Virus record (IMG/VR): IMGVR_UViG_3300025519_000001
Span: 1-64,000 of that record
Reading direction: 5' to 3' (one strand)
DNA from: a virus
Length of the DNA stretch: 64,000 nt
The position numbers were made by a program, and so were the translations under genes. The notes beneath the pieces were generated by a model, which was given only the letters and a program-made list of their open reading frames with translations, was not told where the DNA came from and did no database searches. This document shows positions 1,675 to 64,000 of this stretch, piece by piece; position 1 is the first letter of the stretch, and the number at the start of each line of letters is the position of its first letter.

Positions 1675-4600
1675 ATGGAAACATCCAAGTTTTCCGGATT
1701 GTACGAATATTTGGGTTTCGCGATATATAACGCCGGTTCCCGTCACGAATGGGATATTGAGCCTATTGGATGGGATATTCGAGCCATTGAGCGCTGGAAA
1801 GCATCTTCTTTTTCGTTTCGAACACTGGCACAAGCTAAAAAGTGGATTCGGGAAAATGCCGATAACATTAAGGAGAGTGATTATAAAGCATGAAGGAATG
1901 AACATTATATTGCATTATACTATACGATCCATCGAAGTAATACATAGAAGCCAATAGGAGGTTCAACAATCATGTCCAGATGGTTAATCATTTTCAATCA
2001 ATACCAACCAAACGAAACGCGCTATGAAATTATGGCTTCCACTTGTGACGAGGCTATTATGACAGCCATGAGTGAAGCAAACATCTCCAAACGTCCGCCA
2101 AATATTTCTGCTCAAGTGAAGGAGGAATAATCGCCATGCAAACAATGAGTGAATATAAAAAATACAATTATTCAGGTAAAATTTTGGACGTTCTCTATTA
2201 CTCTATAACAGACGATACTCTATATATCAAATACAATGGCAAACAAGCAATGCGAAAAATTCAACAAACAAGCGAATATACATACAAATTTACAAAAACA
2301 CTCGTAAAAGCAATTAACGGCGCGGAAGGTTTACGTCGCTTCTTCGTTTCATGTCATGACGCTGACAGTCCGTTTAATCGTTCGTTTTTTGATACGTTGG
2401 TTAAACTTGTTTCCTAATATGTTATAACAAACAGCAACGCCATAATAGCGCTTGAAATACTCATTTCATGAATATATGGAGGAATAAAAAATGAATAAAT
2501 GCCTTCTGTATATCCTTGTAACTTTCGTCGATTCTGATTTTAATTTTGACGAGTACGAATGCGCAGATTTGGTGGAAGTAGCAAGACTTAGGGAGGAATT
2601 AGAAAACGATAACTATAAATTTGTATCCGCTCAACCTGTCTATGGTTGATAAAAGTCAATACATTACAAGTAAGACAGCAGCCCATGAAATGCGTTTATT
2701 TCATTCGGGATTGATGATATCCTTTTGATTGTATAACAACCGTCTAGGCGGTGTCTGTATAACAGACGAGCAGCCTTAAGTCTAGAGCGTTACGCGCTAT
2801 ATATTGGCGCGTAGATGGCTAGTAAAAAAAGTTAAAGGAGTAATGTTTTATGAATATTGTAACACGTCCACTTGATGAACACGACTATGAAGCCATGAAA
2901 GCAGAAAAGGAAGAAAGGGAAGCAATCGAAGCTATGATGAACTGGGCAGACAATTTTAAACTTGCATTACAAGAAAAGCGATTTTCTGCGGCAAAAGTTG
3001 CACTCGACAGAATGAATAGCATACTTTCGGATTATGTATAACAGATTGAGGAGGAGTAGTTCACATGACTATCAAACAAGCAAAAGAACTAAAGCGCGGC
3101 TCCGTTATCCTCATCAATCACATAACAGGAAAAGACGAACTCGCCCGTGTTGTCAGATGGGATGAACGCGCACAAGGAATTGACTATCACGCCATTAGTG
3201 GCGGAGGAAGTATTTGTAAACCCGAACATATCATAAAAGTGCTTGACGAAAAGCCCTTTTATGAATCGGAAATATGGGCACAAGCATGGAAAGAAAAATG
3301 GAATGAAAACTATAAAAGAAGCCGAAACGCGCTATAACAGCGCGTCCGTATACGGTGGCAACGTGTACGCTGATGATGGTAAGCCAATATGTAGGAGGCA
3401 TAAAAAAATGAAAGAATGGAAGCGAATTATTGCTGATGCAGGCTATGTGCCTACAAAAAATGGACTTGTTTCATATCTTGACGAAAGAAACAAACTTCCT
3501 TTCATTTGTCCGTTTTGGTCCGAAAAAATCAAATACTATCGCAGTTTAACCATAACAGAACTACTGAAGTATATGGAGGAATAAAAAATGAAAACTAACA
3601 ATAAAAATCGCTTTTTTCGCGACTTTTCCTTTTCTGTTTATCGTTATTCTCCCGAATCCTTCCGGCTTTACTACAAAGGAAAAGAAGTCAAACTTTCGGA
3701 CGATGAACGCTTTAACATGGGATATGCAGCCATAACAAAAGGCAAGCAGGAGGTTTTAAAACATATCAAACGCTGGACGCGCAAAAAGTCTACACTTGCC
3801 AAACGTGAATATATGCCTATCCTTGCAATTCTTTCAGACGATAACAGCGAATACTATCATATTGGTGTCCGTGTCAATCGTTATAACATGATGGAAAAGT
3901 TGTCCGTTTATCAATGGATCAAAGAGGCTTTTAATGATGGGCGTTTTGCTATAAAAACGACAACGGCGAAACTGGACGCGAATTTTAAACCCTATGATGT
4001 TCAAGAAGATCAACACGAAAAGAAATTAGGCAAACGGATTGTATTTATTTAAAAGCAAATAATACATTAACAGTTGAATCATACTATAACAGCAAAGGAG
4101 GGACGATTGACGAAATAACAGCATTAAAAAAATATGTAGGAGAGTGTTAAAAATGAACAAACAGGATAACAACAATAACAGCCAATCGGCATGGGATCTA
4201 GTACGAACATACAGACAAGCAGCACAAAGAGCACAAAAAATGTATAAAAAAGGTAAACCGTTTGATGCTAACAGCATTAAAGCGTTTGAACTATATGTGT
4301 CCTTTTCACGTAAGATGATTAATGTAAAATTGTAAAGGAGTGACTAAACAATGCTAGGTAAATGCGTTCATTATGTATCAGGTATTGAAACAAAGCAGCT
4401 TGTAAAAGTTGATCACTACAAAGGATTCGACTTTTATAAGCTACGCAAAAACGCTAACACAGACTGGACGATGATATATTTTCAGCATGACGGACATTTT
4501 TTTCCGATTAGTAACAACGTTGATAATATTAAAAACTTTTTAGATAATAATTCTAACTTTGACATTGCGACGTTTATCGTTTCCGAATTTGAAGAATCAT

Positions 4601-7600
4601 TAAAAACGGGCGCAAATGTATCCATGGGATATGCACAATATCTAGGACGCGAACAGGAGGCGCTGGAAGCCGTTAGGCGTTTCCGAGAGCGCAAGGAACA
4701 AGAAAAGGCGGAACGTGAAGCGAAGAAAGTAGAAGAAGAACGGAAGCGACTCCAGGAGAAGGAAAACGCCATAACAGCAGCGGAACAAGACTACAAAGAA
4801 AATAAATATATTAATGGAGACATTTTTTTAGAATTGTGCGACAAGTATAATATTACAATCCCCATTCGTACTAGAGGATGGATTAAAGAGAATTTAACAC
4901 GAATCAAGTATAACAGCGAAAGAAGTGTGTCATACAGTCATACGGGCAATCCGTCAAAAAGCATTGTCGATATTGCATTTAGTCTCTATAACAGTTTGAC
5001 GGAAAGCGAACAGGAAAGTGGAGAATATGTCACGCTAGACGAATTAAACAATTTATTCGGCGTGAATGCCTAATAACAGGAGGCCTCTCCCATGTCCACA
5101 ATTCGCGTACTGCCTAACGGCGCATTGGTCAATTCATATCGAATCATCGGCACGTCTACAACAGTCTATGAAGCGTTTGAGCCTTCATCCTACACTGGGA
5201 ATCATTCGTGCATTCAGCGCTTCAATGATCGCGTTTATGGCGCTATCAGCAGCAGGAGAACAAGAAGAAGAGAGGATAACAGCAAAGAAGCATTACAACA
5301 TATTTTCGAAGCATTTCCCCATTTGAAACAAGTTGATTATACTATTGACGAATTTATGGGAACGATTGAAACAATTAACGAATAGGAGATGATAAAAATG
5401 AAAATAACAGTTAAATCTTATAAACCTTTGTTTGCAAAAAAAGTAAAATATGTCGCTTCATTCGGACAATTCCAGGAAGAAGGTAATACGAAAGAAGAAG
5501 CGAAGCAGAACCTTATAACAGCGCTTGAGTGGTATTTCAGCAATACAGGCAACGAATTGACAACTAAAGTTATTCCCGAAGCTGGCGTAACTCTGTTCAT
5601 GCTTAGAACGTTCGCAGGATATGAAATAAGAACAGTCTATCATGATGGAAGAATTTCCATGGGAACGAGTCTATATGGACGTTTAAGCCATAGGGAAGCA
5701 TTAGAACGCCTTAATAGTCATGTAGAAGGATATCAAGCAGTAAAGGCCGTATAACACGAATACATAAACAATGGGAGGTTTATATCTATGTCTCAAACTA
5801 TAGCAGGACAAATGTATAACAATCATATCAAGGAAAGTCTCTTGTCTGGTAAACCTGTAGAATTGAGTATGAAAGACTTTTTGCCTAAAAGCCAGTATAA
5901 CAACAAACAAAAACAATACCAAAAAAACGAATTTGAAAAAGAAATTATGGCAGAATTGAAGCGACTCCAAAGCGAGTATATAGGATTTGAAAATATCCAT
6001 CTTCGCATATCGTTGCTTAAATCTCATGTTATGGAAATGATGGCGAATGTTGAAGATATGGAAGATGTAAAAGAAATTTATAGAGTTTATAAAAATATTG
6101 CTTGGAATAATCCTATCTAATTTAACAACCAATAACAGCACACTCCCATAATATCGGCTCCATATGGTATTATGGGAGTGTGTATACAAAGGAGCGGATA
6201 ACATATGACTCATTTCACGTTTACGGGTTACTACGCAGGACAAACTTTTTGTGGAGTAGCACGAAACGAAACGGATAAATATATGCACATTCAAGGCTCT
6301 AATACTCCTATCATGAAGCGTCTTTTGAGCGGGAAAGAGAAATTATGTCCCCATTGTTGAGAAATCTATTTATCTGAAGGTGAGGATGAGGGCGATGAAT
6401 GAGACAATAAAGCAAGTTGAAGATGAAATAAATCGAATAACAAAAGAAATTAAAACATGTGATAGCAGTGAACGCATCAAGGAATTGCAGAATGAACGTG
6501 ATGAATGGTCTATGATTTTAGGAATCATGTTAAACAAACAGAATACATAACAGCTATGTTTGAATCAAACCAGTCTTTCATTATCACAAACGGAGATAGA
6601 TAAACAATGATTCTAACTATAATTGGAATTATACTCTCTGTGTTTTGTGTTTTATCGTTGCTATTGGGAATTGTCGGGTTATTTAATAAAGAGGATTATT
6701 CCTATAGTGGCAATAGAAGTTATAATAGTATAGGGCCGTTTGGAATGGCATTTGTTTTCGGATTGATTGCATATACTTTGCTTCATGTGCAATAACACAA
6801 TAAAACAAGTATTTCATGACCATATAATAGGAGGCTTTAACAATGGAGAAGTATTTTATTAAGGATCATGGCGACGATTTTGAAGTACTAACAGAAGGGC
6901 AGGCTAAGGGAACGAACGCCATTTCTTTGTTTGAATATCTCAAAAAGCAACTAGATAGTGTCGATGCTTCGTTCTATCTTTATCTCCATGAATTTCCTGT
7001 GTTTGGGGATGAAATAGGTTTAAAGCCAGAAGAGGTTTTACCGACACTTCAAAGGGCAGCAGATTTCCTTGGAGGCATGACACGTTCTCAAGTATACGAC
7101 GAACTTTGCCAACATGATAAATTGGCTGTATTCTTCAAAAGTGAAGCAAAAACTCTTATTAAGGATGCTCTTATCAAGAAAGCAAATTCATTGCTCAATG
7201 AAGCATTAACTCTTTGATAAACAACGTGGAGGTTGTATAACAGCAACCTCCAAAGATCCCATGAAAACGGCATTTCAAGTCTATACAAAAAAATATCAAG
7301 CCGACAGCCGATGATAGAACGGCAGGCCGAAAGGATGGTTAAAAATGGAAAAGGTAAAAGTAACGTATCAAGCAGGACAATCAAGATATTCTAACGCAAG
7401 CGTAGACTACATGCTTGCAGAAGTTGATGGCATCGAACTTTATGCAGAGCGTCCGCCCGTTGAAGATGATGAGACTGGAAGTTACGAGGAGTTGAAATCT
7501 GCGATCATCGAGCAGGCCCAGGCGCATAACATCGACGTGGGACTCTTGGAGTTTTGGTACGACGACGCACAACATTCTAGGGAGGTTTAAACCATGGCAA

Positions 7601-8310
7601 TTAAATTTAAACATCCCGAATATGATTTTTCGTTCGAGGTTAAATTCATTATTAGAGACTTGGAAGCAGTAAAAACTAATATCCAAAATCCGTTTATTAT
7701 GGCTTCTGGCACACTCGATAATCATTTATTTGACATCCCGCATTCCGCAAATTATACAATCAAAAATTCTCTTTTTAGTCTCATGCAACATATAACAGGG
7801 CAACAAAACATATGGGACATTTGCAAAACCGCATTTGATAAAGACGAGGAATGGGGAAAGTGGAGAAATGATGGTTTGCTTTATGAAGCATACCATAAGT
7901 ACACAATAAAGCCTGCATACGTCGATCAAGTCTTATTTGTTATTGATCAGTGGATCGCTGAAGCAAAGGAAATCATGCAGAAAATGATTGACGCAGAAGA
8001 AGAAAAGAAACGACAGCGCGAAGCAGATTATAACAGATTTACAATCATTGAAACGTATCAATTAATCATGCCTACAGGCGGCGAAGATGGCACAGACGGA
8101 TATTTTGACGGATTGATCCGTAATAATAGCACGGGAATATCTATCCGAGTAGTAGCTAAAAATATATTTGATGTTGGTTTCTTCTCGTATCCTAAACGTG
8201 TTGAAGAGACAGAAGAAGTGTTTAATAGACAATCTTGGACAGACGACGAAAAGGATGCTTGCGCTTGGATTGGTAAGTTTTCGCCTTTTACTACTGCTAT
8301 TCGTATGTAA
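1675..8310 (+). other. Block of about 17 co-oriented small hypothetical early genes (e.g. 1675-1893, 2136-2417, 2850-3041, 3065-3337, 3588-4052, 4351-5073, 5092-5385, 5398-5754, 5788-6120, 6607-6795, 6843-7217, 7345-7590, 7594-8310)
   Basis: ORF track plus strong GGAGG/AGGAG RBSs; no family recognised. Confidence 0.75.
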
Positions 8311-8406
8311 TAACAACACAATGTTATAACAGCCCAAGCGGAGCCGATCCGCTTATTTATTTTAATAGCAAGGATGAAAATAAGGATTTAAAATAAAATA
8401 TTATAC

Positions 8407-8435
8407 TTTACTAGTGTAAAATACAATGATATGAT
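8407..8435 (+). promoter_or_regulatory. Sigma-A promoter (TTTACT-17-TATGAT, extended -10)
   Basis: Close to consensus; follows a terminator-like hairpin at about 8336-8363 and precedes ORF 8478. Confidence 0.6.
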
Positions 8436-8477
8436 AGTTTTAGAGTTAAAAATTACATATGAGAGGACTGATCGTCA

Positions 8478-8846
8478 ATGTCCTATACAGTTACAGAAGC
8501 GAATATTAAAGCATGGGAAAACCAAATTAAGAAATTCGAAAACATGACAGATGTTAATAACAGCTACTTTGAAGTGTTCCGCGATTCAAAATATCCTGAT
8601 TGGCAAACGGACTCCAAACAAAAAGCAAGTTGGCTGCAATATAAAAGTAGAGTTGGTAACTTTTTGGATTCAATTGCCAAAGATGTTGTAACAATGACAT
8701 ATGAAGAAATCGCTAAGTATATCGAAGCAAAACCAAATACAAAAAATCATATTAACGGCTTTTTGCTTTTCATTATCAGAGAAAACGTTCTCAATTGCCG
8801 TGAGCGAATCAATAAAGATTTATTGTTTTGGGTTTTAGGTTTTTGA
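8478..8846 (+). CDS. Hypothetical protein, possibly a stand-alone integrase N-terminal (SAM-like core-binding) domain
   Basis: YKSRVGNFLDSIAKDVVTMTYEEIAKYI resembles the helical pattern of integrase core-binding domains; no catalytic domain. Confidence 0.4.
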   Translation: MSYTVTEANIKAWENQIKKFENMTDVNNSYFEVFRDSKYPDWQTDSKQKASWLQYKSRVGNFLDSIAKDVVTMTYEEIAKYIEAKPNTKNHINGFLLFIIRENVLNCRERINKDLLFWVLGF

Positions 8847-9880
8847 CTATAACAGCAGTAGTACACGAAATCAGAATTTTATGAGGGAGACAAATAATAA
8901 GATGAAAAACAAAAATGTGAAATTTGACTCCAATGTACCCAACTGGGTTAGAATTGCAATGTCAGAAGAATTTTGTATGGGATGGAATCCAGTTAAAGAA
9001 AATGAGGATATTTATGTAAAGTTCATTGAGCATAGAAATTTTGAAGAAATTATTATGACTGTAAACGATGAGGCATATGAATTTGACCGCTTTTCAAGAT
9101 GTTATTTCCTAGTAAAATAAGTGAAAAATAAAAAAGATGGAGTGATAACAATGAAAGAATATCGAATTGAGACACATTATTTTGTAAACGGTGAATGGTT
9201 TGCGGATATCTGGCTTTTTGAGAATGGGATGCCGATTGATTTTATTAAGAAAGTGAAAAGAAATGATGATGGAAGCATGTCGCCTGAATACGGTAATAAA
9301 CTTGGAACAAACTGGATTGCTCCGCAATTTGTTTATGCATAACAGCCGATGAAATAAGGTTTTCATTCAATCTTGAAAGGATGATAACAGATGAAATTCA
9401 ACGGAGTAAAGTTGACAGAGGAATCAATTTTAAAGGCGCGTCAATGGTATGCTGATAATGCTAGAGGATGCATTGAGGAAGTACAGAACGGTAGCGTTAA
9501 AGTAAATGATCCTGAAGCGTATATTAAATGGCGTGAGAAACAAATTGAGGATGCTTTAGCGGGACGCTATGATCATACATTAGCGTTCTTACAACGGGCT
9601 TATTATATTCAAACTGGTGAATGTGTGGCATTGTTGCCATAACAGACAATGAAATAATGCTTTCATGTAAAGTTTAAAAATAAAATATGGAGGATACATA
9701 TGAATGGAATCATTTATTTGGTAGCATGGCAAATAACAGGTGTAATTCTTTTCTTATCAGTTTGTGCTGTTATTGGTTTGAATATGACGGTTTTTGCTGA
9801 TATTGAAGAGGAAGAAGAATGTTTTGGTTATAAAAATAAAGTTTTGGTTTATTGGAATGATAACGAAAAATCTTAATTAT

Positions 9881-9926
9881 ATGAAGTCACCGTAAAACCC
9901 CTGCGTTTACGCATGGGGAGTGTCAA
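9881..9926 (+). mobile_element. IS200/IS605 mini-remnant (single hairpin, PATE-like)
   Basis: CCCCTGCGTTTACGCATGGGGAGTGTCAA; the 3' end GGGGAGTGTCAA is identical to the right end of the element ending at 61088. Confidence 0.7.
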
Positions 9927-9957
9927 AAATAATTATTATCAAGGAGGAATTTAAGCT

Positions 9958-11043
9958 ATGCAAGCAGAAATTGTATTTGAGGAAAATGTAGAAAAAAATT
10001 TGATGGAGGACAAAATCATGGTAGAAGATAATAATAGCAAGCAATATACATCCTTGGCTGAACGTATTGCAGCAGAAAGGATTCAAAAATCGCAAGCACA
10101 ACCAAGAAGCTTGCGAAATATCGCAAGAAATCCCAATTCGTTTAACTTTGATTTGGCAGTACAAAGAAACTTGAGATGGACAGATTTCCAAGTTAGCGAA
10201 TTGATTGAATCGATTTTGCTTGGATATCCGATTCCTCCAGTTTACGCCGTTAAATCAGAGGATAATATTACATGGTGCATTGATGGTAAGCAAAGGTTTA
10301 AACGTGCTATTATTCCTTTTATGAGGGACGAAATTGCAATTGTAGATGATTTTCGTCCAATCTTCGGAGTGGACATTTCTGGGAAGAAGTTTTCAGAACT
10401 TCCGCCAGAATTTCAGGAAATTCTCGAGGATTTTAATGTTGTCATTTATCAATTCGAAAAGTTGACTCCTGACCAAAGAGATGATTTTTTCCGCAGATTG
10501 AATAGCGGAACTCCTCTTTTGGCAATTGAGTTGACACGCTCCATTCTGGGTTCCGAATTGCTTGATTATATTAACAGCCTCATTGAGACGCCTTTCATGC
10601 AAAAGGTGGCTTTGAGTGACAAACAACGAGATAAATATGTAGATCAAGAGTTGGTCTTGCAAATGATTTCTATTATAACAGAACGAGGATATGACATCGG
10701 AAGTAAAGAAATGCGGGAATTTGCATTGAAACTTCGTATTGATGGGCTTTCGCAGGGAGAAAAAGACAGGATTCAAAAGACATTTGACTTCCTTTCCGTA
10801 GCCTTTGCTTCAACTGACGAGAAAACAGCTAAGAAGATCCTTAAGAAAGCAGATGTTATTGGAATTGTTGGCGCTGCTGTAAAAGCAACTTGTACTCCAG
10901 AGGTCTTCAGCGAAAAATTAAGTATTTACATTGCTAATCAAGCTTCTGGATCGAATTATGCGAATACGAAACGAAATAAAAGTTCTTCGGCAGATAGCGT
11001 AAAAAGACGTATTGAAATTTTGATTGGAGTATTGGAAGAATAA
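9958..11043 (+). CDS. DUF262 (ParB/Srx-superfamily, GmrSD N-terminal-like) domain protein
   Basis: VQRNLRW...LIESILLGYPIPPVY...IDGKQR and FFRRLNSGTPL motifs; no obvious HNH/DUF1524 domain. Confidence 0.85.
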   Translation: MQAEIVFEENVEKNLMEDKIMVEDNNSKQYTSLAERIAAERIQKSQAQPRSLRNIARNPNSFNFDLAVQRNLRWTDFQVSELIESILLGYPIPPVYAVKSEDNITWCIDGKQRFKRAIIPFMRDEIAIVDDFRPIFGVDISGKKFSELPPEFQEILEDFNVVIYQFEKLTPDQRDDFFRRLNSGTPLLAIELTRSILGSELLDYINSLIETPFMQKVALSDKQRDKYVDQELVLQMISIITERGYDIGSKEMREFALKLRIDGLSQGEKDRIQKTFDFLSVAFASTDEKTAKKILKKADVIGIVGAAVKATCTPEVFSEKLSIYIANQASGSNYANTKRNKSSSADSVKRRIEILIGVLEE

Positions 11044-11054
11044 GTATTGTTAAA

Positions 11055-11088
11055 AGGCTAGGAGAGTGTTTGTCGCTCTCCTAGCCTC
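11055..11088 (+). terminator. Intrinsic terminator-like hairpin
   Basis: AGGCTAGGAGAG...CTCTCCTAGCCT right after the DUF262 stop codon. Confidence 0.65.
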
Positions 11089-11172
11089 AATAAAAAATAA
11101 TTTCTTTTTATAACAGCATGTGCTATATTGTTTATAGAAACGAAATATTATACATAACAGGTGATCAGATTT

Positions 11173-11388
11173 ATGTCGAACATCTATAAAGAAAATGGCT
11201 ATAACAGTCGTGAAGAATACCTTGAAGAACTTGCAGATGAATATGGTATTCCATATGAAATGGTTTATAGTCTGTGGGAAGTCTTAGGGGATGAAGAAGC
11301 CTTTGACGGGCTTGTAAGCGCCTGTGAAGACGCAGAAGCGTTGATGACAAGCGAAGAAGACGAAGAGGAGAATGAAGAATGGGACTGA
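11173..11388 (+). CDS. Small, highly acidic hypothetical protein
   Basis: ORF with RBS AGGTG; about one third D/E residues. Confidence 0.7.
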   Translation: MSNIYKENGYNSREEYLEELADEYGIPYEMVYSLWEVLGDEEAFDGLVSACEDAEALMTSEEDEEENEEWD

Positions 11389-11687
11389 TTAGGGTTATCG
11401 TCAAAGAGCCACAGAAGGATGCTTATGTGACTGACATTTCAAATACGCTCGAAGCTAAACAGAAAATTGTTGGTGGATATATAGAAGCCGTTCCCTTTGG
11501 AATTGACCATATTCTTATCTTAAATGAAGAAGGAAAACTAATTGGACTTCAACCGAATATTTTATGGAATGATGATGTGATCATGGGAACGATCATTCTA
11601 GCGCGGAATGAAGCGCCAGAATTTGGTTCCATTCGTCCAGAAGAAGAAGGATGGATGATTCAGATGCTTAACAGAGCGTCGGTATAA
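11379..11687 (+). CDS. DUF3846 family protein
   Basis: LEAKQKIVGGYIEAV...ILNEEGKLIGLQPN motif. Confidence 0.8.
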   Translation: MGLIRVIVKEPQKDAYVTDISNTLEAKQKIVGGYIEAVPFGIDHILILNEEGKLIGLQPNILWNDDVIMGTIILARNEAPEFGSIRPEEEGWMIQMLNRASV

Positions 11688-13451: not shown

Positions 13452-13573
13452 AAGTTGTAAAAAAGTTATAAGCAAGTTACCAGCAAGCTAAAAAACCGCA
13501 TAACAGTAAGGTTTCTTTATAATTTAGGGGCGGTTTTGCAAGTTAAATGCAAGTTAGAAATAAGTTATAAGTT
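13452..13573 (+). repeat. 11-bp-phased AAGTT direct-repeat array around an inverted repeat (iteron/centromere/att-like site)
   Basis: AAGTT or AAGCT at 13452, 13463, 13474, 13485, 13540, 13551, 13562, all in one 11-bp register; central AAAACCGC...GCGGTTTT. Confidence 0.7.
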
Positions 13574-14040: not shown

Positions 14041-14053
14041 AAATTCATCAAAT

Positions 14054-51773: not shown

Positions 51774-51798
51774 GAATGACTGCGGGTGGTGATTAAAA

Positions 51799-52404
51799 AT
51801 CGCACGTCCAGTTAAATGTAGGTCATGTTTGCAGTTTGATGATAAAACCAAAATGATCAAAACAGAAAAAGATGGATATTTTCACGAAGGAGAATGTTAT
51901 CAAAAATATCTCGATCATAAAGAATTTACAAAAAAAGAAAACGAGGAATGGGACGAATTATATCAATATATAAAGAAATTACATAATGTAGTGGTTGTAC
52001 CACCAGCAAATGTTGTACGACTACAAGCTCTTAGGAACGGAAATGACCTTAAGAAAGGAAAACCATACAAGCGTTATAAGATGGGTGCAGAATATTCATT
52101 AATGTTAGAAGCGTATTTGCTTGCGGAAGATGAGATAAAAAAAAGTATAGCTACAAAATTAAAAGATAGTAATGATGTTAGTGCAATTAATTATTGTATT
52201 TCTATTATGACTAATAAACTAAACCAGGCATGGAAAAATAGACAAAAAGCAAAAGAAGCGAAAGAAGAAAATAAAAAATTAGAAAGGAAAATAGAAGAAA
52301 TGTCAGATGTAGTAAAAAAAATGAGAGAGGTTCAGCAAAATTTGATTTCCGTTTCTAAAAACAATGACGAAAATGAAATAGATATTACGACGCTACTTGA
52401 TTAA
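51799..52404 (+). CDS. YorH-like replication protein with N-terminal CxxC; inferred ATC start
   Basis: (M)ARPVKCRSC...YFHEGEC; RBS GGTGGTGA; in-frame TGA at 51790; directly upstream of the helicase. Confidence 0.6.
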   Translation: MARPVKCRSCLQFDDKTKMIKTEKDGYFHEGECYQKYLDHKEFTKKENEEWDELYQYIKKLHNVVVVPPANVVRLQALRNGNDLKKGKPYKRYKMGAEYSLMLEAYLLAEDEIKKSIATKLKDSNDVSAINYCISIMTNKLNQAWKNRQKAKEAKEENKKLERKIEEMSDVVKKMREVQQNLISVSKNNDENEIDITTLLD

Positions 52405-53956: not shown

Positions 53957-53970
53957 GGAAGTGATTCGAA

Positions 53971-54984
53971 ATTGATGCTCAAGTCCTGAAGGAAAAAATT
54001 AAAGAAGACGATAAGGTAGAACTTATTTTAGAAGCATTAGGTTGCCATCACATTAAGCGAAGCAAAAATTGTTTTACTGCTGCTAATCCAGACGGAGATA
54101 ATAAAACGGCAATTAATGTTTTTTATGATACATTAGTTACACTTAACCACACAAGATCCGATTTTCCAGAGAGAGCAAGCATTATCGATCTTGTGTGCTA
54201 TATAAAAAAAATATATTTTACTCATGCTATTAATTGGATTTGCGAGGTTTGTGGATATGATTTTTATGATTCTACATATAAAGAAGAAGAGCTAGATCCA
54301 TGCTTGCTAATACTTGATCAAATAGAAGCATCAAGTTATAAACAACAAGAGTTTCCGTTATTAAAACATAACAATAAGATCCTTCTTGAATATATAGATT
54401 ATCCTAATAGTTGGTTTATCGAAGAAGGTATTTCTTATGATGTTCAAAAAATGTTTGAAGTCGGTTTTTCTAAAAGAGACGATTGTATAACGCTTCCTAT
54501 ACGGGATGAACTAGGAAACCTTGTGGGAGTAAAAGGGAGGACAATTCTTCATGATGATGGTGGAAGAAAGTATTGGTATATATATCCTGTTCCCAAAAGT
54601 AAAATATTATACGGACTTGATAAGTCGTTAAAATTTATCAAAGAACAAGGTGAAGTTATTGTTTATGAGTCAGAAAAAAGTGTGTTAAAGTCATGGTCAA
54701 TGGGTTTTTGTCATTGTGTGAGTATTGGCGGTCATGAAATTAGCGACACTCAAGTTCTAAAACTTGAGAAATTAGGTGTTGATATTATTCTGGCATTTGA
54801 TAAAGATATTTCTCCAAAGGAAGTAAAAAAACAAGCAGATAAATTTATTTTAAAAGATTCTCTTTATGCGATTATTCCCAATAAGCACAAAGCTTTATTG
54901 GGCGAAAAAGATGCTCCAGTTGATCGAGGAATAGATGTTTTTATTAAGCTCTATACAGAAGATAAATATAAAATACCGAAATGA
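53971..54984 (+). CDS. DNA primase (TOPRIM, YorJ-like); inferred ATT start
   Basis: ITLPIRDELGNLVGVKGRT, LYGL, VYESEKSV, LAFDKD; frame open back to ATT 53971 after an in-frame TGA. Confidence 0.9.
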   Translation: MDAQVLKEKIKEDDKVELILEALGCHHIKRSKNCFTAANPDGDNKTAINVFYDTLVTLNHTRSDFPERASIIDLVCYIKKIYFTHAINWICEVCGYDFYDSTYKEEELDPCLLILDQIEASSYKQQEFPLLKHNNKILLEYIDYPNSWFIEEGISYDVQKMFEVGFSKRDDCITLPIRDELGNLVGVKGRTILHDDGGRKYWYIYPVPKSKILYGLDKSLKFIKEQGEVIVYESEKSVLKSWSMGFCHCVSIGGHEISDTQVLKLEKLGVDIILAFDKDISPKEVKKQADKFILKDSLYAIIPNKHKALLGEKDAPVDRGIDVFIKLYTEDKYKIPK

Positions 54985-55308
54985 AGGATGGTTAAATTAA
55001 ATTATGGCAACAGGACATTGGGAATGTTTGTATTGTGAAAGTGTTTCAAAGCCTCGCAAAGTTAAAGGCGAATTAGTATGCAGAAATTGTAACGCTCCGT
55101 GGGAAGAAGCAATTTGGGTAGAAGATGTTGAAGATGAAAGTGAAAATGAAGAATAAAGAAAAGTAGAAATAAAAGTAAATTAGAACACTACATATTGATT
55201 GTTTAGTGTTAAATGAATCTATATATTGATACAAAAAGTGCATGAAACTGTGGTTTCATAAGATTGTATGGGGTGGCCTTATGCTACCCCAAAAAGGAGA
55301 GTGATTAA

Positions 55309-56235
55309 TTGGGACTAAATGTTTTAAGTTTGTTTGATGGAATGTCATGCGGACAAATTGCTTTAGAGCGTGCAGGGATCGGAGTTAGTACATATTACGC
55401 AAGTGAAATTGAAAAATCAAGTATAAAAATTACCCAAAAGAATTATCCAAATACAATTCAACTTGGAGATGTGACCAAACTTAATAAAGAAAAACTATTA
55501 TCGTTAGGAAAAATTGACTTACTTATTGGTGGTAGTCCATGTCAAAATTTAACGATAACCACCATTGATCGTCCCGAACACAACCAAGGATTAGATGGAA
55601 AAAAGTCAAGGCTGTTTTGGGAATATGTAAGAATTCTTCAAATTGTTAATCCAACATATTTTCTATTGGAAAACGTTGAAAGCATGTCGAAGGAAGATAG
55701 AGATATTATTACCGAAGAGCTTGGAGTTGAACCAATAATGATTGATAGTGCATTAGTTTCAGCCCAAGAGCGTAAAAGGTATTACTGGACAAATATCAAA
55801 AGAATCCAACAACCCAAAGATAAAGAAATTGTAATTAAGGATATTTTGGAATCAAGTGTTAATGAAAAGTATTACTACAATCAATCATATGATTTCTATG
55901 GTTTAGATAAAAAAGTTGTGGCAAAACTTCATTTAAATACTCACGATCTTCTTAAACGAGTTTACAATATTGAGGGTAAATGTGCTACATTGACAGCTTG
56001 CAGGGGAGGATATAAACAAAAGAAAATCTATCTTCCAGACGAAAAACGTATTCGAAGATTAACGCCACTTGAATATGAACGCCTTCAAACTGTTCCTGAT
56101 GGATATACAGAAGGAGTAGCAGAAGGACATCGTTACAATATGCTTGGTGATGGATGGACTGTTGATGTAATTGTACATATTTTCAATGCATTAAAATGTG
56201 AATTATTAAAAAATAAAAATGAAATGAAAGTATAA
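55309..56235 (+). CDS. DNA (cytosine-5) methyltransferase, orphan
   Basis: SLFDG, GGSPCQ, LLENV, QERKRYYW, RRLTPLEYERLQ, LGDGW. Confidence 0.95.
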   Translation: MGLNVLSLFDGMSCGQIALERAGIGVSTYYASEIEKSSIKITQKNYPNTIQLGDVTKLNKEKLLSLGKIDLLIGGSPCQNLTITTIDRPEHNQGLDGKKSRLFWEYVRILQIVNPTYFLLENVESMSKEDRDIITEELGVEPIMIDSALVSAQERKRYYWTNIKRIQQPKDKEIVIKDILESSVNEKYYYNQSYDFYGLDKKVVAKLHLNTHDLLKRVYNIEGKCATLTACRGGYKQKKIYLPDEKRIRRLTPLEYERLQTVPDGYTEGVAEGHRYNMLGDGWTVDVIVHIFNALKCELLKNKNEMKV

Positions 56236-57514
56236 TTTTATGAGAAAAGAGGAACATTAAATGAAAAAATACGCTGATTGGTATTATGTTCGTGAAGCAG
56301 AAAAAGAAGGTCGAGTAGCATCCATGACTAATGTTGTAGAGCGTAACAGAACGGAATTAAATGATCAACTGAGTTCTTACTTTAGAAGTAAGATACCTAA
56401 TTATAAATCTATTTTCGACGAACATGAATGCGATGATATTCTTTTTAATTTAAATGATTACATAGAAGAAAACAATATTGATAAACGAGAAATTGATTTT
56501 CCTATTACTGAGGGGACTGATATTCACTTATTAAAAATCACTGACAACCTTCATTTAAAGATTCTTGTGGTTGATGAATACTATGGAGGGGGAGATTATG
56601 AAAAATATATTGAGATTGGATATTTTGTGATTAACGAAAATACGACAGAGCGAGATGTTGATAAACTAGTTGATTTTGTGAAGCAATATTTGCAATAAAA
56701 GAGAAGTTTCATGAGGAGGCAAAAGAGAAATAAATGTTGATAATTGAATGTAATGGAGAATATGCTTTCGGAGGCAGAACTGAAGATATATTCGTAGTTG
56801 AAAATCATAATAGTATTGACGATCTACAACAATATATTCAGAACAAACAGCCAATAAAATGCAAAGAACCAACAAAGTATGTAAAGAGGTTTATTATCGA
56901 AAAAGAATCATTAAGGGATAGGTTAGTATATTTAAATAATTATTTGAAAATAAAAAAAGCGGATTTTGTTATTATGACACAAGAAGAGATTGATAGTCTT
57001 TATCGGCGTTCATGTTACAAATGCGCTAGTCATAACGGCTCCCTTTCTGATTTTCTTAGATGCTGTTATATTCCAGATGGTGAAGGGGGATGCGCTCGAC
57101 AATGGGAACATTTTTCATGGTTTAAGAATTTATTTAGAAAGAAAGGCCAATAAGAATAAAGAAATTTGAAGTAAAATTTTTATTAGTTAAGGAAATAAGG
57201 GTATGAAACATATCTTTCATTAGCGATTGGTGATTAATCGTGACTAAAAAAGATAAAGATATTTTGTTGTTTGGTTTGTTTTTGGCTCAACTTAAAGATA
57301 AATATGACATTAGGCCGACTGATTTAATTCAAGATTATAATCAAGAAAAAATTAATGAGATATTTGACAAGGCTCTCTCAAAACTATCAACAAAGGAATC
57401 GTTAATTAAAGCAGTCACAGATTTGTACTATGATTTAAAAATAAAATAGTAAAAGTATTGACTTTTTAAATGTGATTTTGATATTATGTCTATGCAACAG
57501 AAAGGAGTGGTTAC

Positions 57515-59200
57515 TTGCAGAGAAAGTGGAAACAAAAGAAACCTAAATTATCCTACAGTGACAACGCAAGCATTATTGAAAAGTTAGCAGCTATCAATGG
57601 AATTAAAGAAATTGGACGATTTATTAATCCTACTAGGGACGAACTTCATGATCCATATTTACTTAAGAATATCGAAGAAGCAGCTAATCGAATTATCAAG
57701 GCCGTCAAGACTGGCGAAAATATTGCAATACATGCAGACATTGACGCAGATGGCGTTTGTAGTGCAGCAGTTATGTACCGTTTTTTAAAAAAGTTTACGG
57801 ATAATATTACATACTTCCACGCACAGCGTTCGCGTGGTCATGGTATTCATCAGTCAATCAGTGATATTCCATATGGAACAGACTTACTTATAATTCTTGA
57901 TAGTTCATCTAATGAAGAAGAATCATGCAAGAAAATATTTGAACGTGGAATTGATATTGTAATTCTTGACCATCATGAGATCGAAAATAAAAATGAATAT
58001 TGTATTTTAGTAAATCCACAACAAGAAGGATGCCAATATCCAAACAAACAAGCTTCCGGTGTACTTATCACATGGAAAGTATGTCAAGTAATTGAAGATA
58101 CACTTGGAGGAAATTTCACTGATTCTTTAATTGATCTTGTTGGCCTTGGTCTTTATAGCGATCAAATGAGCATGTTAGAGTATGAAAATCGCTATATTCT
58201 AAAACACACAATCGAAAACATCAACAACAAGGGTATTAAAGCAATTTTAAATCTTTTACGCAAAGACATTGGAAAACTTAATGCAAATGATTTTGGATAC
58301 TCAGTAATGCCATTTGTTAATGCAGCTACAAGGCTTGATAAAATTGAATACGTTCTTGATTTGTTGATTAGCGACGATGATTCTTTAATTGAACAACGAG
58401 TTAAAGAAATAAAAAAGTTAAACGAACAAAGAAAACAAAAGCAAAAAGAAACAATTGAAACTATCGTTGAATACATAGACGAGAACGACAAATGTATCGT
58501 GCTAGTGGAACCAGAACTCGGCAAGGGCTTCAACGGCCTTGTTGCTGGAGATATTGCTAATGCATATCAACGACCAACTATCATATTAGGAAATGCACTA
58601 AAAGAAAAAGACGAATATCATGGAAGTTTCCGTTCAGTTGGATTTTTTAAATTCCTTGATTTTGTTCGTGAAATTCCAGAAGTGATTTTTGCGGGAGGCC
58701 ACCAATACGCGGGTGGTTTAGGAATCAAGAAAGTTAATTTAGAAAAATTTAAACAAGAATTAAATGAAAGATTAAAAGATGTTGACTTTGAAAATGTAGT
58801 AAGCTATGAGCTTAATTTACATCATCAAGAAATTGATGAGCCTTTTATTGAATTAATCAATAGTTTTTATAAAGTTACGGGAAAAGGTTTTAGTGAGGGT
58901 AAATTTCTTATCGAAGATATGTATGTATTAACCAAAGATATAATTGGTTCTGGTGATACATTAAAACTAGGTTTATGTCCTGTTTCAAACACATGGTTTG
59001 ATGATATTGAAAACATTAAGCCAACACTAATAGGAATGAAATTTAGAGCAGATCAAGAAACAATAAATAAAATAAAGACGGGAGATGTAATTGATTTAAT
59101 TGGTTCATTAAATATCAATGAATTTGTTAGATGGAGGCCACAAAAAGAAATTATAAAAACATTACAAGTATTCATTGAAGATTTTAGGCATTCAAAATAA
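57515..59200 (+). CDS. recJ: RecJ-like ssDNA exonuclease (DHH, YorK-like)
   Basis: DIDADG, ILDHH, NAATRL, GSFRS, GGHQYAGG; promoter TTGACT at 57458. Confidence 0.93.
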   Translation: MQRKWKQKKPKLSYSDNASIIEKLAAINGIKEIGRFINPTRDELHDPYLLKNIEEAANRIIKAVKTGENIAIHADIDADGVCSAAVMYRFLKKFTDNITYFHAQRSRGHGIHQSISDIPYGTDLLIILDSSSNEEESCKKIFERGIDIVILDHHEIENKNEYCILVNPQQEGCQYPNKQASGVLITWKVCQVIEDTLGGNFTDSLIDLVGLGLYSDQMSMLEYENRYILKHTIENINNKGIKAILNLLRKDIGKLNANDFGYSVMPFVNAATRLDKIEYVLDLLISDDDSLIEQRVKEIKKLNEQRKQKQKETIETIVEYIDENDKCIVLVEPELGKGFNGLVAGDIANAYQRPTIILGNALKEKDEYHGSFRSVGFFKFLDFVREIPEVIFAGGHQYAGGLGIKKVNLEKFKQELNERLKDVDFENVVSYELNLHHQEIDEPFIELINSFYKVTGKGFSEGKFLIEDMYVLTKDIIGSGDTLKLGLCPVSNTWFDDIENIKPTLIGMKFRADQETINKIKTGDVIDLIGSLNINEFVRWRPQKEIIKTLQVFIEDFRHSK

Positions 59201-59772
59201 AACTTTAAAGGGGATAATACATATGCTATTTTACGCAACTGGAACTGACGAAAAAGGTGCTCATTATATTATCTATCATAACGAAATTTTTAAAGATCGT
59301 TTTACTGCTGTTCAACAAGCAGAACGAATTGCAAAGGTAAAAGGTTTAACGCTTGAAGGTGTACGAGTTGTAGGAGAAAGTAAAGTTGAAGGTCGCACAA
59401 TGACCAAATTTTTCAAACATAGAAAACAACACAATGGAATTAATCCAAATGAGTATTTTAGTGTACTTTGAGGTTCATTAAAACTGAATCCGCTAGTCTG
59501 GTCGGCTGGCGGATTCACCATAGGAGGAAAATGTATTGAACGAATTATTTTCGGTTTTAGAATGGACGCAAGAGAATGATTCGGAAGCCAATATTATTGC
59601 TAGGCATTTAACCAAATCTCAGGAAGATATTTTTGTTTCAATTGCACCGGAACATCTGCACAGGGAAGTTATTAGTATGAATGAACTTAACAAATTGCAA
59701 GGTGTTCAACAATAAAAAATCTATCTTTCATAGAGGAGAAATGAAGATGAGCGAGGTAACTGTAACTATTAC

Positions 59773-61088
59773 AAATCCACCACAAGAAAGCCCCTGTCTT
59801 TAGGCATGGGGATGAATTGTGGTAGGATAAGTTGGTAAAAACTTGATTTTCATAACTAAAATATGATATATTTATTATAAGAAAAAAGAACGGAGGTGAC
59901 ATTTGTGCAATCCATCACTGTAAAAATCAGATTTTTTCCTGATAACCCAAAGGTCATTAAAGAAGCATCACAAGAATATATCAATATTGTCAATAAATTA
60001 TCTCAACAAGCAGTAGAAAATAAAACTTTCCCTAAAATCACAACAAAAGATATTTCAACTTTTCTTCCATCTGCTGTTTGCAATCAAGCGATCAGAGACG
60101 CAAAATCTGTATATACCAAGTATAAAAAAACCAAAAAATTATCTGTTCTTAAGAAGCCAGTATATTATATTAATAATCAAAATTATACCATTCTTGATAA
60201 TGCAATTGCCTTTCCTATATCTATTAACGGAAAAACGAAAAAGACATATTTTAAAGCCATTGCAACAGATAGAGATATAGAATTAATCAAAAAATCCAAA
60301 CTTGGTCTTATGCGTATTGTAGAGAAATCAGGTAAATGGTATGCTCAAGTGTCCATTCAAATTCCAGAAGAAAAATTTAGTGGCGAAAATATCATGGGCA
60401 TTGATCTTGGCTTAAAAGTTCCTGCTGTTGCTGTAACATCAACAGGCAAGACAAGATTTTTTGGTAATGGTAGGCAAATGAAATATGTCAGGCGCAAATA
60501 TCAGTCTCGCAGAAGAAAATTGGGTAAACTTAAAAAACTTTCGGCCATCAAAAAATTAGGCGATAAAGAAAGCAGATGGATAAAAGACCAAAATCATAAA
60601 ATCAGTAGACAGATTGTGAATTATGCTATACAAGAAAATGCAAGTATGATAAAACTAGAAAAATTAGAAAATATTCGCAAGACGACAAGAACAAGTCGTA
60701 AAAACGCAAGGAATCTGCACAACTGGTCATTCTATCAACTGCAACAGTTTATCACATATAAGGCTAACTTGGCAGGAATTAAAGTTATAGAAGTTAATCC
60801 TGCATATACAAGTCAAACATGTCCTCGTTGTGGTAAACGAAATAAAGCAGATGATAGACGATATGAATGCTCATGTGGATTCAAGACACATAGAGATCGG
60901 GTTGGTGCAATAAACATCATGAACCAACCTGTGGCAGATGGTAACAGTCTGCCAGCCTAAGAACCTATATGGTCTGTCTTAGGATGGGCTGATGGCACAG
61001 CCCTTAACTTGGAGATTGCACGAAGTAGAAATGCATGAGTGCGCGAATCATCCAAGAATCCCTCGGATTTATCCGTGGGGAGTGTCAA
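59773..61088 (+). mobile_element. IS200/IS605-family element, TnpB only; inserted after TTAC, ends in TCAA
   Basis: Left hairpin CCCCTGTCTTTAGGCATGGGG, right hairpin CCCTCGGATTTATCCGTGGG then GAGTGTCAA; reading frame restored on excision. Confidence 0.9.
59896..60960 (+). CDS. tnpB: TnpB, catalytic D-E-D and zinc finger intact
   Basis: GIDLG, IKLEKL, YTSQTCPRCG, CSCG, HRDRVGAINI. Confidence 0.95.
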   Translation: MTFVQSITVKIRFFPDNPKVIKEASQEYINIVNKLSQQAVENKTFPKITTKDISTFLPSAVCNQAIRDAKSVYTKYKKTKKLSVLKKPVYYINNQNYTILDNAIAFPISINGKTKKTYFKAIATDRDIELIKKSKLGLMRIVEKSGKWYAQVSIQIPEEKFSGENIMGIDLGLKVPAVAVTSTGKTRFFGNGRQMKYVRRKYQSRRRKLGKLKKLSAIKKLGDKESRWIKDQNHKISRQIVNYAIQENASMIKLEKLENIRKTTRTSRKNARNLHNWSFYQLQQFITYKANLAGIKVIEVNPAYTSQTCPRCGKRNKADDRRYECSCGFKTHRDRVGAINIMNQPVADGNSLPA

Positions 61089-62137
61089 CAAATCTGAGTA
61101 TGAAAGTCTGTTGCGTGACAGCATAAAATTAAGTTGTCTAGAAGCATGTGGTGTTGATAATTGGGAGGGTTGGGATGATGCAATGAAGATGTATCATGAA
61201 GAAATGGAAGGGGAAAATGCTAAAGAAAGAGAACTATCTATAAGTGGGAGAGGGCCAACACAAGAAGCATTTTCTCGGATTGAGTGATAATGTTAGTTAT
61301 TTTGTAGAGCAAACAGACGCGACTTACGGCGTCCCCTATCATTATCGAGTGCTTTTTCGTCCTGAAACCATTGTTCCTGATATTGATTTGCAAACATCTA
61401 TTGAAAAATAAAAATTTCATAGGGAGAGATTTATAAATGAAGATTAAATTTGAAGAAGATATCAAAAAAAAGAAGGTTGAGATTGGAGATCTTATTCTGG
61501 ATAATGGAGATTTATATTTGATTGTTCATGGTCTTAATGAAGAGTATCCATTTGAAATTGTTGAACTTGATAAATGTACTGTTGTAGAAGCATATTCCTC
61601 AGAAGAAGATTTGATAGATTTTTTTGAAAATCCTATAGTGTATAAGCATGATAAAGTCGAATTAGTTATTAAAAATTGCTAATGGAAGAATAATTTTTTG
61701 AAAAAATGATGATGAATAAAGGAATGTTTAAATGATTATTGTTGCTTGGATACTAATGATTGTTTTTGGTTGGTTTGCTTTACTTGGTTGGATTAAATAT
61801 TGGTTTGGATCGGTAAAGCTAAGTCAATTAATTCTTATTATGTTTTGGTCTGTTATTGCTGCATTATGTGCTGGCGTAATCTTTGGTGGATTATTTAGCA
61901 ATTATATTAATTAATGATGAAGTCGGATTTCATGAGGATGAATAAAATATATCAATACCATATATTTTTAATTTTGTAGTTGATGATCAGAAGGGATACG
62001 CTGAAAAAAGAGATAGTAGAAATTATTTTGTCTATTGGGATAACGAAGATGTCCCTGATATTTACGACACTAAAGATGTTCAAAGACTTCTAAATAATAG
62101 TATATGGATTTTACAAGAGCATTTTTATGAAAAGGGT

Positions 62138-62650
62138 GTGATTAATAACTTGACAAAAAGAAAAAATGGAATGGGTAGTCATGAATCAGCACGTATGAAA
62201 ACTGATGAGTGGTTGACTCCTCCTGAGATTTTAAAGGAATTAGGTGAATTTGATTTAGATCCATGTTCACCAATACATAGACCTTGGGATACGGCAAAAG
62301 TACACTACACTATTGAGGATGACGGTTTGTCAAAGGAATGGTTTGGTAGAGTGTGGCTTAATCCACCATATGGTAATATGGTAGCAAAATGGCTAGATAA
62401 ATTAGCTATACACGGAAATGGTATTGCGCTTATTTTTGCAAGAACAGAGACAAAGATGTTCTTCGATCATGTATGGGATAAAGCAAATGCATTGTTATTT
62501 TTTAGAGGAAGGCTTTTCTTTCATCATGTGACAGGAGAAAAAGCAAATCAAAACGCTGGCGCTCCGTCTGTTCTTATTGCTTATGGTGAAGAAAATATGA
62601 AGACTCTAGAAAGTGTTTCTGATTGGGGTAAGTTAATTAAATTAAAGTGA
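62138..62650 (+). CDS. Phage N6-adenine DNA methyltransferase (short Dam-family type)
   Basis: DEWLTPP, FDLDPC, DDGL, VWLNPPY, LIFARTET. Confidence 0.9.
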   Translation: MINNLTKRKNGMGSHESARMKTDEWLTPPEILKELGEFDLDPCSPIHRPWDTAKVHYTIEDDGLSKEWFGRVWLNPPYGNMVAKWLDKLAIHGNGIALIFARTETKMFFDHVWDKANALLFFRGRLFFHHVTGEKANQNAGAPSVLIAYGEENMKTLESVSDWGKLIKLK

Positions 62651-63295
62651 AAGTTTCATTTGATTTGAAAACAAAAAAAAGGAGATACATATGAAAATCA
62701 ACAAATTTGGAGCATGGCCTAAAACTGAAGAAGAATTAATTTTTTATCTGCATGAACAAGAGAATAAACATCATGATTATAATTCGATTGCCGAAGCTTT
62801 GACAAATGTTACTGTAGCGATGTTTAACTATTTTGCTTGCAAACATGGTATGACAGGTTTTCAATGCAGTTGGTCTGGAATGCAATTTCTAAGACAAACA
62901 CGAGGGATGGAAGGGCCATTTGGGATTGTTGATGGATCTAAAATGCTCTATCCACAATATGATATTGTTGCCGAAGTTAAAAAATGGTTAGAAGAATGGA
63001 AGCCAGAACTAGGTCGAATGGCAAAAGAAAAACTCAAACAAGAACGCAATGAAAGTTTTCTTCCACATCCAGATGTAATTGCTCGTTGGAAGGAACTTGC
63101 TAAATATGTTGAATAATTATGATAAAAGAAGAATTATAAAGGAAGTGAAAAAATGAAAACAGTTGATGTAACTTTAGTCGTTAAAGATGGTGGGTACGAA
63201 CAAGTTAGAATTCCTTCTACAATGCTTGGAGACTTGGCTTATGCAATTCAAGAAAAAGGTTCTGAAGTAGTACAGCTTGCAAGCAAAAAATTTAA

Positions 63296-63360
63296 CCTAC
63301 TGCGACCAGAATTCCCCCGCCTCTATAGGCGGCGGGATGAATGGATGCTAAAATATCTTC
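63296..63360 (+). mobile_element. Orphan IS605-family left end interrupting ORF 63153
   Basis: TTTAA then CCCCCGCCTCTATAGGCGGCGGGATGAATG, the same layout as the left end at 30885; no tnpB or right end follows. Confidence 0.6.
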
Positions 63361-63503
63361 TCCAAAAATTGACTTTTCACTAACTATAATGATATACTAT
63401 TCTATTTGGATATATGCCAAACAAATTTGTCTTAGGATGTTCCTTGTTAATTTGTGCCATTTCCTTTTTTGGTTCTGCAATTAGAAATGACGAAGGAAAA
63501 TGA

Positions 63504-63902
63504 ATGGGGGAATATGTATTGGTAAAAGATGTAGATAAAGATGTTAAAGATGCAAAAATTATCGATGTAGAATTTGTAGCAAGTCTTTGTCATGAAGTAA
63601 ATCGCGCTTATTGCCAAAGCCTCGGTGATCATTCTCAACCTTCTTGGGACGAAGCACCGGATTGGCAAAAACAAAGTGCAATTAATGGGGTAAAGTTTCA
63701 TTTTGAGAATGAAACAACTCCAGAAGAAAGTCATGTTAATTGGATGAAAGAAAAAATTGCTGACGGATGGGTTTATGGAGAAGTTAAAGATCCCGAAAAG
63801 AAAACTCATCCATGTTTAGTAGAGTACAATCAATTGCCACAGGAGCAACGTAGTAAAGACTATATTTTTAAAGCTATTTGTGATTTTTATAAGTATAGAT
63901 AA
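63504..63902 (+). CDS. RyR (ryanodine receptor repeat) domain protein
   Basis: CHEVNRAYC...SHVNWMKEKIADGWVYGEVKDPEKKTHPCLVEYNQLP. Confidence 0.9.
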   Translation: MGEYVLVKDVDKDVKDAKIIDVEFVASLCHEVNRAYCQSLGDHSQPSWDEAPDWQKQSAINGVKFHFENETTPEESHVNWMKEKIADGWVYGEVKDPEKKTHPCLVEYNQLPQEQRSKDYIFKAICDFYKYR

Positions 63903-64000
63903 ATATGAAAATATAATTTTATCATCTGTGAGAGAGGAGAAAGATTATTCTACAATTTCTTTTTTGGTTTGGAGTTTATTTGTTAATCGGATATATTTGG

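Follow-up and report, generated by a model that had tools for sequence, protein, structure and literature searches.

Co-oriented 18-bp palindromes in an SPbeta-like phage genome: candidate recombinase sites for slot-wise exchange of accessory genes

Among the described systems of short sites between accessory genes, the pdif (xrs) sites of Acinetobacter plasmids, i.e. dif modules used by XerC/XerD, come closest to the one treated here; their centre decides which sites recombine, and the exchange is intermolecular (PMC11705084). We analysed the first 64 kb (64,000 nucleotides, the window) of the 154,759-bp virus record IMGVR_UViG_3300025519_000001, whose whole genome is labelled G000, and in which the 18-bp palindrome ATRAAA-N6-TTTYAT marks the junctions of accessory genes. 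We regard it as likely, from sequence comparisons, that these palindromes are recombinase sites with the 6-bp spacer as an address. As in the pdif modules, many sites stand between accessory genes, compatibility depends on a 6-bp central region, there is little excision within one molecule, and two crossovers would exchange material between co-resident replicons. Unlike pdif, the phage site is symmetric, as expected for a single enzyme, all sites point in the same direction, 35-70 of them occur per genome with position-specific addresses common to distant phages, and the element is a phage. Furthermore, the phage arms carry AAA and TTT beside the centre and do not show the ATAA-centre-TTAT register of XerC/D. 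By analogy, the phage system appears to work like the Acinetobacter pdif modules while failing the XerC/D arm test, and it does not appear to be an integron.

Other known systems share single features with the phage sites. XerH/difH, XerS/difSL and XerA/dif have a dyad around a short centre and a recombinase gene beside the site, the left arm of difH contains ATGAAA, and the weaker 11-6-11 dyad of the phage sites corresponds to the dif geometry (PMC5357621); in contrast, these systems possess one site per chromosome for dimer resolution, and the difH arms end in four A at the centre, the phage arms in three. Integrons (IntI, attI/attC) resemble the window in having arrays of small promoterless genes with recombination-like sites between them and a promoter upstream, but the phage sites have no folded attC, no covariation and no single insertion site, reordering was not seen, and partner centres match. 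The PeSL cassettes of the T4-type phages RB49 and phi1 (PMC2839356) are likewise repeated intergenic elements in hypervariable regions with module exchange; however, they consist of a promoter plus a stem-loop, recombine mutually and form mini-circles, whereas the phage sites are 18-28 bp long, promoterless and individually addressed. Finally, SPBRE, the operator of the SPbeta repressor MrpR (PMC10516654), is likewise repeated between genes in this phage family, but represents a non-palindromic 15-mer in approximately ten promoters. A literature search in freely searchable texts found no description of the 18-bp motif. To be regarded as new are the comparison in SPbeta with its junction control, the two published laboratory crossovers, the exclusion of the MrpR operator and the co-occurrence with YomM including its exceptions.

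Abundance, placement and positional spacers of the sites

The window contains 32 exact copies of the motif, compared to a mean of 0.30 and a maximum of 3 in shuffled sequences, and 50 copies with at most one mismatch compared to 7.8 expected. A first-pass annotation made from the sequence alone had anticipated less than one exact copy by chance, which is borne out, and had counted 31 exact copies, one too few, besides near-copies, 18 of which we find at one mismatch (approximately 7.5 of them expected by chance). In the whole genome 40 exact copies occur, 32 of them inside the window, and only the spacer length of 6 yields this number, because all other lengths from 0 to 15 gave 0-5 copies. 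The tyrosine-recombinase geometry that had been proposed, inverted arms around a fixed 6-bp overlap, is thus retained, since only N6 is enriched in G000 and in its relatives.

Most sites are located at gene boundaries. The stop codon of the upstream open reading frame (ORF) falls within -25 to +18 of the site in 25 of 32 cases (14% at random positions), a Shine-Dalgarno-like (SD-like) word follows within 30 nt in 27 of 32 (27% at random), and both are found together at 20 of the 32 sites (5.9% at random). The stop lies at left-arm position 4 in sites 17355, 25307, 49572, 50673 and 56695, and at the spacer end in sites 25101, 30465 and 56224; hence, all three spacer stops and five of the six left-arm stops named earlier could be recovered, while the sixth, at 32426, was missed by our test, which used ORFs of at least 45 codons. 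Site 17830 is situated inside a longer open frame (17649-18032), whose true start is probably just past the site; a small ORF upstream of it would then terminate within the spacer. Most sites are found inside operons and distant from promoters. Of the two promoters regarded as strong, the one at 16947 matches the sigma-70 consensus at 12/12 positions and that at 35485 at 10/12, and the total of promoter-like matches across the window is no higher than in shuffles. As had been noticed before, no site exists at the yopQ-mrpR, ssb-AAA and helicase-primase junctions or in the GC-rich block at 20.1-23.1 kb. This block of small genes (20100-23100, 45-48% GC) was probably acquired by a different route.

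The description of the spacer as freely varying turned out to be misleading, because it differs from site to site within a genome, but is kept by position between phages. Compared with G002, a prophage of Paenibacillus radicibacter whose AAA protein is 46% identical, G000 shares 12 spacers (2.7 expected), 10 of which are colinear; in 300 shuffles, a maximum of 8 was reached when the order and of 5 when the columns were shuffled. Seven of the ten colinear spacers are found between 25101 and 29957. The identity at the shared sites is limited to the 18 bp and the genes in the slots are unrelated; the window genes from 24354 to 30933 gave no tblastn homolog in the G002 prophage, and at the two degenerate positions of the arms, no more than 5/10 and 4/10 of the pairs have the same base. 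In the P. radicibacter genome, 41 of 43 motif copies are inside the prophage, i.e. the host chromosome is nearly free of them. Prophage G086 shares seven spacers with G000 in the same order as judged by eye (17017, 17355, 17830, 25101, 25307, 41813, 49033), L279 shares four, L294 shares six with one block displaced, and in L014 two spacers are identical and two more are one-off matches, the genes next to them being unrelated. No significant shared address map with G000 was detected for G001, SPbeta, E3, Perkons, the Staphylococcus phage and the Bacillus subtilis group. One-mismatch sites with the same spacer at the matching position in another phage are regarded as real for this reason (Table 1).

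No spacer is repeated among the 34-64 exact sites per genome, but this uniqueness was not used as evidence, because it lacks significance: a rough manual estimate predicts approximately two collisions over five genomes. When one-mismatch sites are included, G000 has a single repeated address: the site pairs 27668/27911 and 30465/30683, whose first spacers are one base apart and whose second spacers are identical, hold unrelated genes of 67 and approximately 60 amino acids. Two observations in other genomes should be mentioned. G131 has site clusters at C1:264-270 kb and 557-574 kb with repeated and near-identical spacers, unlike the unique addresses of G000; these clusters may represent either remnants of duplication or a variant closer to integrons. 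Six sites within 2 kb at G284 C1:664556-666508 show G002 and window addresses in order, distant from any MrpR gene; this run is an orphan piece of a slot array in a host chromosome.

Gene-content breakpoints and laboratory crossovers

The alignment of related phages including SPbeta, which had been suggested as a check, was performed with SPbeta and nine natural relatives. Each of them contains 34-46 copies of WTRAAA-N6-TTTYAW, with enrichment at N6 only; the W positions were added after SPbeta had been inspected. The motif is also enriched in E3, Perkons, Tsamsa, FADO, KKP_3916 and a staphylococcal SPbeta-like phage, but not in the Brevibacillus phage Sundance, and the dyad of the SPbeta sites extends weakly to 11-6-11. 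In these ten genomes, 11-13% of the unique ends of homology blocks fall at site edges compared to 0.7% by chance, with blocks terminating at site positions 17-19 and beginning at positions 0-2. Counting each SPbeta junction once, 21 of 24 junctions with a site are gene-content breakpoints, compared to 16 of 61 without a site (p=3e-7). This count serves as the control for gene boundaries, and the gene caller behind it recovered 44 of 50 annotated ends. Clean slot swaps also occur, e.g. upstream of mtbP, where SPbeta and phi3Ts carry 132 and 1056 bp, respectively, between two shared sites.

At edges with one shared flank, mismatches through the spacer amount to at most 8% (left-anchored) and 13% (right-anchored), whereas the outer degenerate arm base differs in 24% of the cases in the far arm and in 3-7% in the near arm. 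Because the spacer stays matched while the outer base of the far arm diverges, the crossovers are assumed to occur inside the site. Swap-edge pairs had identical spacers in 123/143 and 123/165 cases. None of the 21 site-associated pure insertions had the same spacer at both sides, but 3 of 13 inspected insertions set in precisely where the left arm meets the spacer and have a new right side that is degenerate; this hints at a minor capture route and a possible origin of new slots.

Published laboratory crosses were also considered. Dragos et al. (10.1101/2020.05.06.055103) reported 16 homologous and one "non-homologous" junction between SPbeta and phi3Ts, obtained by PacBio sequencing. Only two of them, N1 and junction 7, have short homology, and both cross over inside sites. 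The "non-homologous" junction N1 is located at SPbeta 116414, where an 18-bp site begins that is identical in both parents and has unrelated flanks; its sequence in Dataset S4 runs from the SPbeta flank through the site into the phi3Ts flank, the phi3Ts coordinate of the published table being off by 14 bp. In junction 7 (given as "30 bp"), the crossover lies in a 21-bp match that holds the site at SPbeta 69423, again with unrelated flanks. Further isolated sites common to both parents are found at SPbeta 88398, 92392, 117533 and 118464. Crossover within the site and matching overlaps, as expected for a tyrosine recombinase, are hence seen in the breakpoint profiles and at both laboratory junctions, which do not resolve the exact cut position. 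Breakpoint statistics and laboratory junctions together sustain the proposal that the sites are crossover points for accessory genes. In the four laboratory hybrid phage genomes, crossovers fall into identical blocks of 1.4-18 kb and are uninformative, while several of these blocks start or end at sites. The published ends of the phi3T/phi3Ts "s" fragment carry no site. Moreover, SPbeta and phi3Ts possess a second junction motif, a direct repeat with two ATAAAA words (e.g. SPbeta 90637, 120659, 132766), which SPbeta has at approximately seven positions and phi3Ts at many more; it is rare in G000.

Mechanism, candidate enzyme and rival explanations

The 18-bp palindrome, as the core of the weaker 11-6-11 dyad, would be a crossover site with one recombinase monomer on either arm; the strand exchange would span the 6-bp centre and require a matching centre in the partner. 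That a tyrosine recombinase catalyses this step is rated as quite likely. Because the centres differ between nearly all sites of a genome and the orientation is uniform, a site could pair only with its positional counterpart, either on a sister copy or on a related phage in the same cell. A single crossover would then produce a hybrid genome, whereas two would replace the gene or genes between two addresses with the slot content of the other phage, keeping stop codon and ribosome-binding site in register and needing no homology in the genes themselves. Such an address design would also avoid self-deletion. Genes thus seem to be swapped in fixed slots and not excised and reordered. The complete reading, in which SPbeta-like phages encode a genome-wide address-coded system with a YomM-family enzyme, 35-70 co-oriented sites, a cross-host map of 6-bp addresses, slot-for-slot exchange and new slots by occasional capture at the cut position, might just as well be wrong as right.

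The search for a catalytically intact tyrosine recombinase elsewhere in the genome identified a YomM-like protein. The family comprises at least 1389 proteins with invariant R173, K204, H281, R284, W307 and Y316, and the predicted structure shows a Xer/Int fold (predicted local distance difference test, pLDDT, 89). Its best structural matches include XerA and XerH, at a sequence identity of only approximately 18%; IntI, like other family members, is a fold match, with 19% identity for IntI. The gene is located in the late region beside the tape-measure gene, more than 30 kb from the array, and an exact site follows just downstream of yomM in four of six phages (G000, SPbeta, G002, Perkons). 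Among 35 MrpR-positive genomes out of 301 Paenibacillales genomes, the motif was in excess in 10 of 10 YomM-positive and in 5 of 25 other genomes (p=1.6e-5). YomM is therefore the best though imperfect candidate, and its role as the enzyme seems evenly poised. As sole enzyme YopP was rejected, since it is present without the motif (G153, Sundance) and was not found together with it in G002 and G244. MrpR is catalytically dead (PMC10516654) and, judged from its sequence, not the likely actor on the sites.

Several points weigh against the recombinase model. N1 and junction 7 stem from a single study, each as an assembled long-read contig, and the probability that both fall at sites depends on the reference: 7 of the 107 isolated parental matches of at least 16 bp overlap sites (chance 0.004), but 6 of 19 colinear ones do (chance 0.09). 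The other 15 laboratory junctions are found in 0.4-20 kb of homology and cannot be localised because the parental blocks are identical, and one 40-bp Hyb3 interval, mapped in this analysis, has no site. Moreover, 605 of 864 pairwise breakpoint events had no site at either end; other exchange routes therefore also operate. Regarding the enzyme, the genomes of the co-occurrence analysis are phylogenetically non-independent and the cut-off was chosen after the counts had been seen. In G086 and KKP_3916, which carry the motif, no YomM could be recognised, and KKP_3916 has just a short Sundance-type enzyme, while the lytic phages 949, VPE25 and Ldl1 (lactococcal, enterococcal) encode YomM-like proteins without the motif. 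The SPbeta-type YomM has HxxK in place of HxxR, and in Sundance, which lacks sites, a gene adjoining the tape-measure gene encodes a recombinase that is intact but divergent. A de novo palindrome search in 949, VPE25, Ldl1 and LIBA6276 gave no convincing counterpart; a weak, different dyad, TTCTA-N12, occurs in Sundance with six copies.

The serious rival is annealing at micro-homologies, in which the sites would be conserved linkers for the phage annealing protein (Sak4-like YorG) or for host recombination, the palindrome having another role or none. This would agree with the position of both laboratory junctions within 18-21 bp of perfect identity, with YorG being encoded next to the array and with the imperfect co-occurrence of YomM and motif. 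However, annealing predicts 18 equally constrained bases, whereas distant phages differ at the degenerate arm positions and match in the centres; dyad symmetry and strict 6-bp spacing are left unexplained, and a multi-copy direct repeat of 16-23 bp offers many more micro-homologies between SPbeta and phi3Ts that are unused in the reported junctions. We consider this explanation unlikely. A dyad with fixed spacing adjoining ribosome-binding sites could also be bound by MrpR, YopP or a host factor acting in regulation or DNA organisation, and both MrpR and YopP have recombinase folds; breakpoints would then gather at the sites merely as conserved intergenic DNA. The motif common to the MrpR chromatin affinity precipitation sequencing (ChAP-seq) peak regions is, however, a different non-palindromic 15-mer, MrpR gives only ten peaks, and the palindrome is near only 2-3 of the seven peak promoters tested and thus is not distributed as the SPBRE operator. 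Therefore, the earlier alternative of an MrpR operator fails. An operator also needs no position-specific centre kept across distant phages, most sites are remote from promoters, and the confinement of the motif to the prophage in the G002 host genome excludes a host regulon, which makes a binding-site function improbable.

The integron-like layout originally favoured, in which circles excise, are captured at non-matching sites and become reordered, finds some agreement in the small promoterless genes downstream of strong promoters, the insertions beginning at the left-arm/spacer boundary, the one repeated address in G000, the different block order in L294 and the repeated spacers in G131. Nevertheless, the address order is largely fixed, no insertion is flanked by one spacer on both sides, exchange occurs between identical spacers and not across non-matching overlaps, no attC-like Rfam match was obtained, and the lack of covariation between the arms argues against an attC-type folded strand; capture and shuffling of this kind is very improbable. 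The same lack of covariation counts against RNA hairpins for processing or translational coupling, which the location between stop codon and ribosome-binding site had brought into consideration: the left R and the right Y vary without regard to each other (Fisher test, p=0.73 for G000 and p=1.0 over four genomes), and 8 of 40 copies would have an A-C mispair in the 6-bp AU stem, so that hairpins have hardly any credibility.

If the recombinase model applies, it would provide a concrete mechanism for a long-standing question, namely how mosaic boundaries of phages come to lie at gene edges without homology of the genes. It would explain the published junction N1 and would offer a function for the extra tyrosine recombinases of these phages, which were unexplained in PMC13245101. 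SPbeta is a model phage resident in B. subtilis 168, which makes the mechanism testable with existing strains, and the dozens of orthogonal 6-bp addresses available in nature would make such a recombinase a useful tool for multiplex cassette exchange.

Coordinates and further features of the genome

Table 1. Sites, slot arrays and genes discussed in the text (positions in the window, if not stated otherwise).
Feature	Position	Strand	Remarks
Exact 18-bp sites (n=32, 6800..63922), starts, part 1	6800, 9349, 9649, 11692, 12490, 14702, 17017, 17355		
Exact sites, starts, part 2	17830, 25101, 25307, 25536, 25808, 27000, 29957, 30465		
Exact sites, starts, part 3	30683, 32426, 36013, 38193, 40223, 40551, 41813, 45114		
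Exact sites, starts, part 4	49364, 49572, 50673, 55242, 56224, 56695, 57203, 63905		
One-mismatch sites (6564..49050)	6564, 7261, 8865		spacer matched in L294
One-mismatch sites	12196, 27668, 27911, 29719		spacer matched in G002
One-mismatch site	49033		spacer matched in G086
One-mismatch sites	43581, 43917		one-off spacers in L014
Best-documented slot array	25101..29974	+	7 sites, spacers identical and colinear in Paenibacillus prophage G002
Apparently duplicated slot	27668..30700	+	site pairs 27668/27911 and 30465/30683
Three sites behind promoter 16947	17017..17847	+	same spacers, in unchanged order, in prophage G086
YopQ-like core gene (DndB family)	33115..34458	+	no site at the mrpR junction
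MrpR (YopR), recombinase-fold repressor	34473..35453	+	no catalytic motifs (PMC10516654)
YorF/ssb-like gene and AAA_24 (YorG) pair	36076..38186	+	bracketed by sites 36013 and 38193
YomM-like tyrosine recombinase	G000 115869-116891	-	outside the window; all catalytic residues present; exact site at 115369, 0.5 kb downstream
YopP-like tyrosine-recombinase-fold gene	G000 142729-143775	+	outside the window

By its predicted gene content, the phage is SPbeta-like and temperate, because it encodes MrpR, YopQ, a YorG-like AAA protein, RecJ, a YonO-like polymerase, a large serine integrase and two more genes with a tyrosine-recombinase fold; the SPbeta-like markers mrpR, yopQ, yopP, YonO-type RNA polymerase and large serine integrase are accordingly all present. 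The YorG AAA gene corresponds to 37152-38186, and its SPbeta counterpart is annotated as Sak4-like annealing protein. Megablast of the 64-kb window against phage records gave no match, and a scan of viral contigs for relatives yielded one with the AAA query and none with the YopQ query.

Some further observations concern other features of the genome. The word ATAACAG occurs 43 times on the plus and once on the minus strand within 1-13500, but just twice in 13.5-64 kb, and thus forms a polar signal. Two small genes at 770-1591 resemble copies at genome positions 151295-152598, with similar N-termini. Two IS605 OrfB/TnpB (Cas12f-like) genes are found at 31009-32286 and 59905-60960, the first between sites 30683 and 32426 and with a promoter-like match of its own at 30958. 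Finally, the window harbours three tandem tRNA genes (14137-14374), a gene with a GmrSD N-terminal domain (9958-11043) and a MazF/PemK-like gene (16305-16697), which is kept at the same place in G002.

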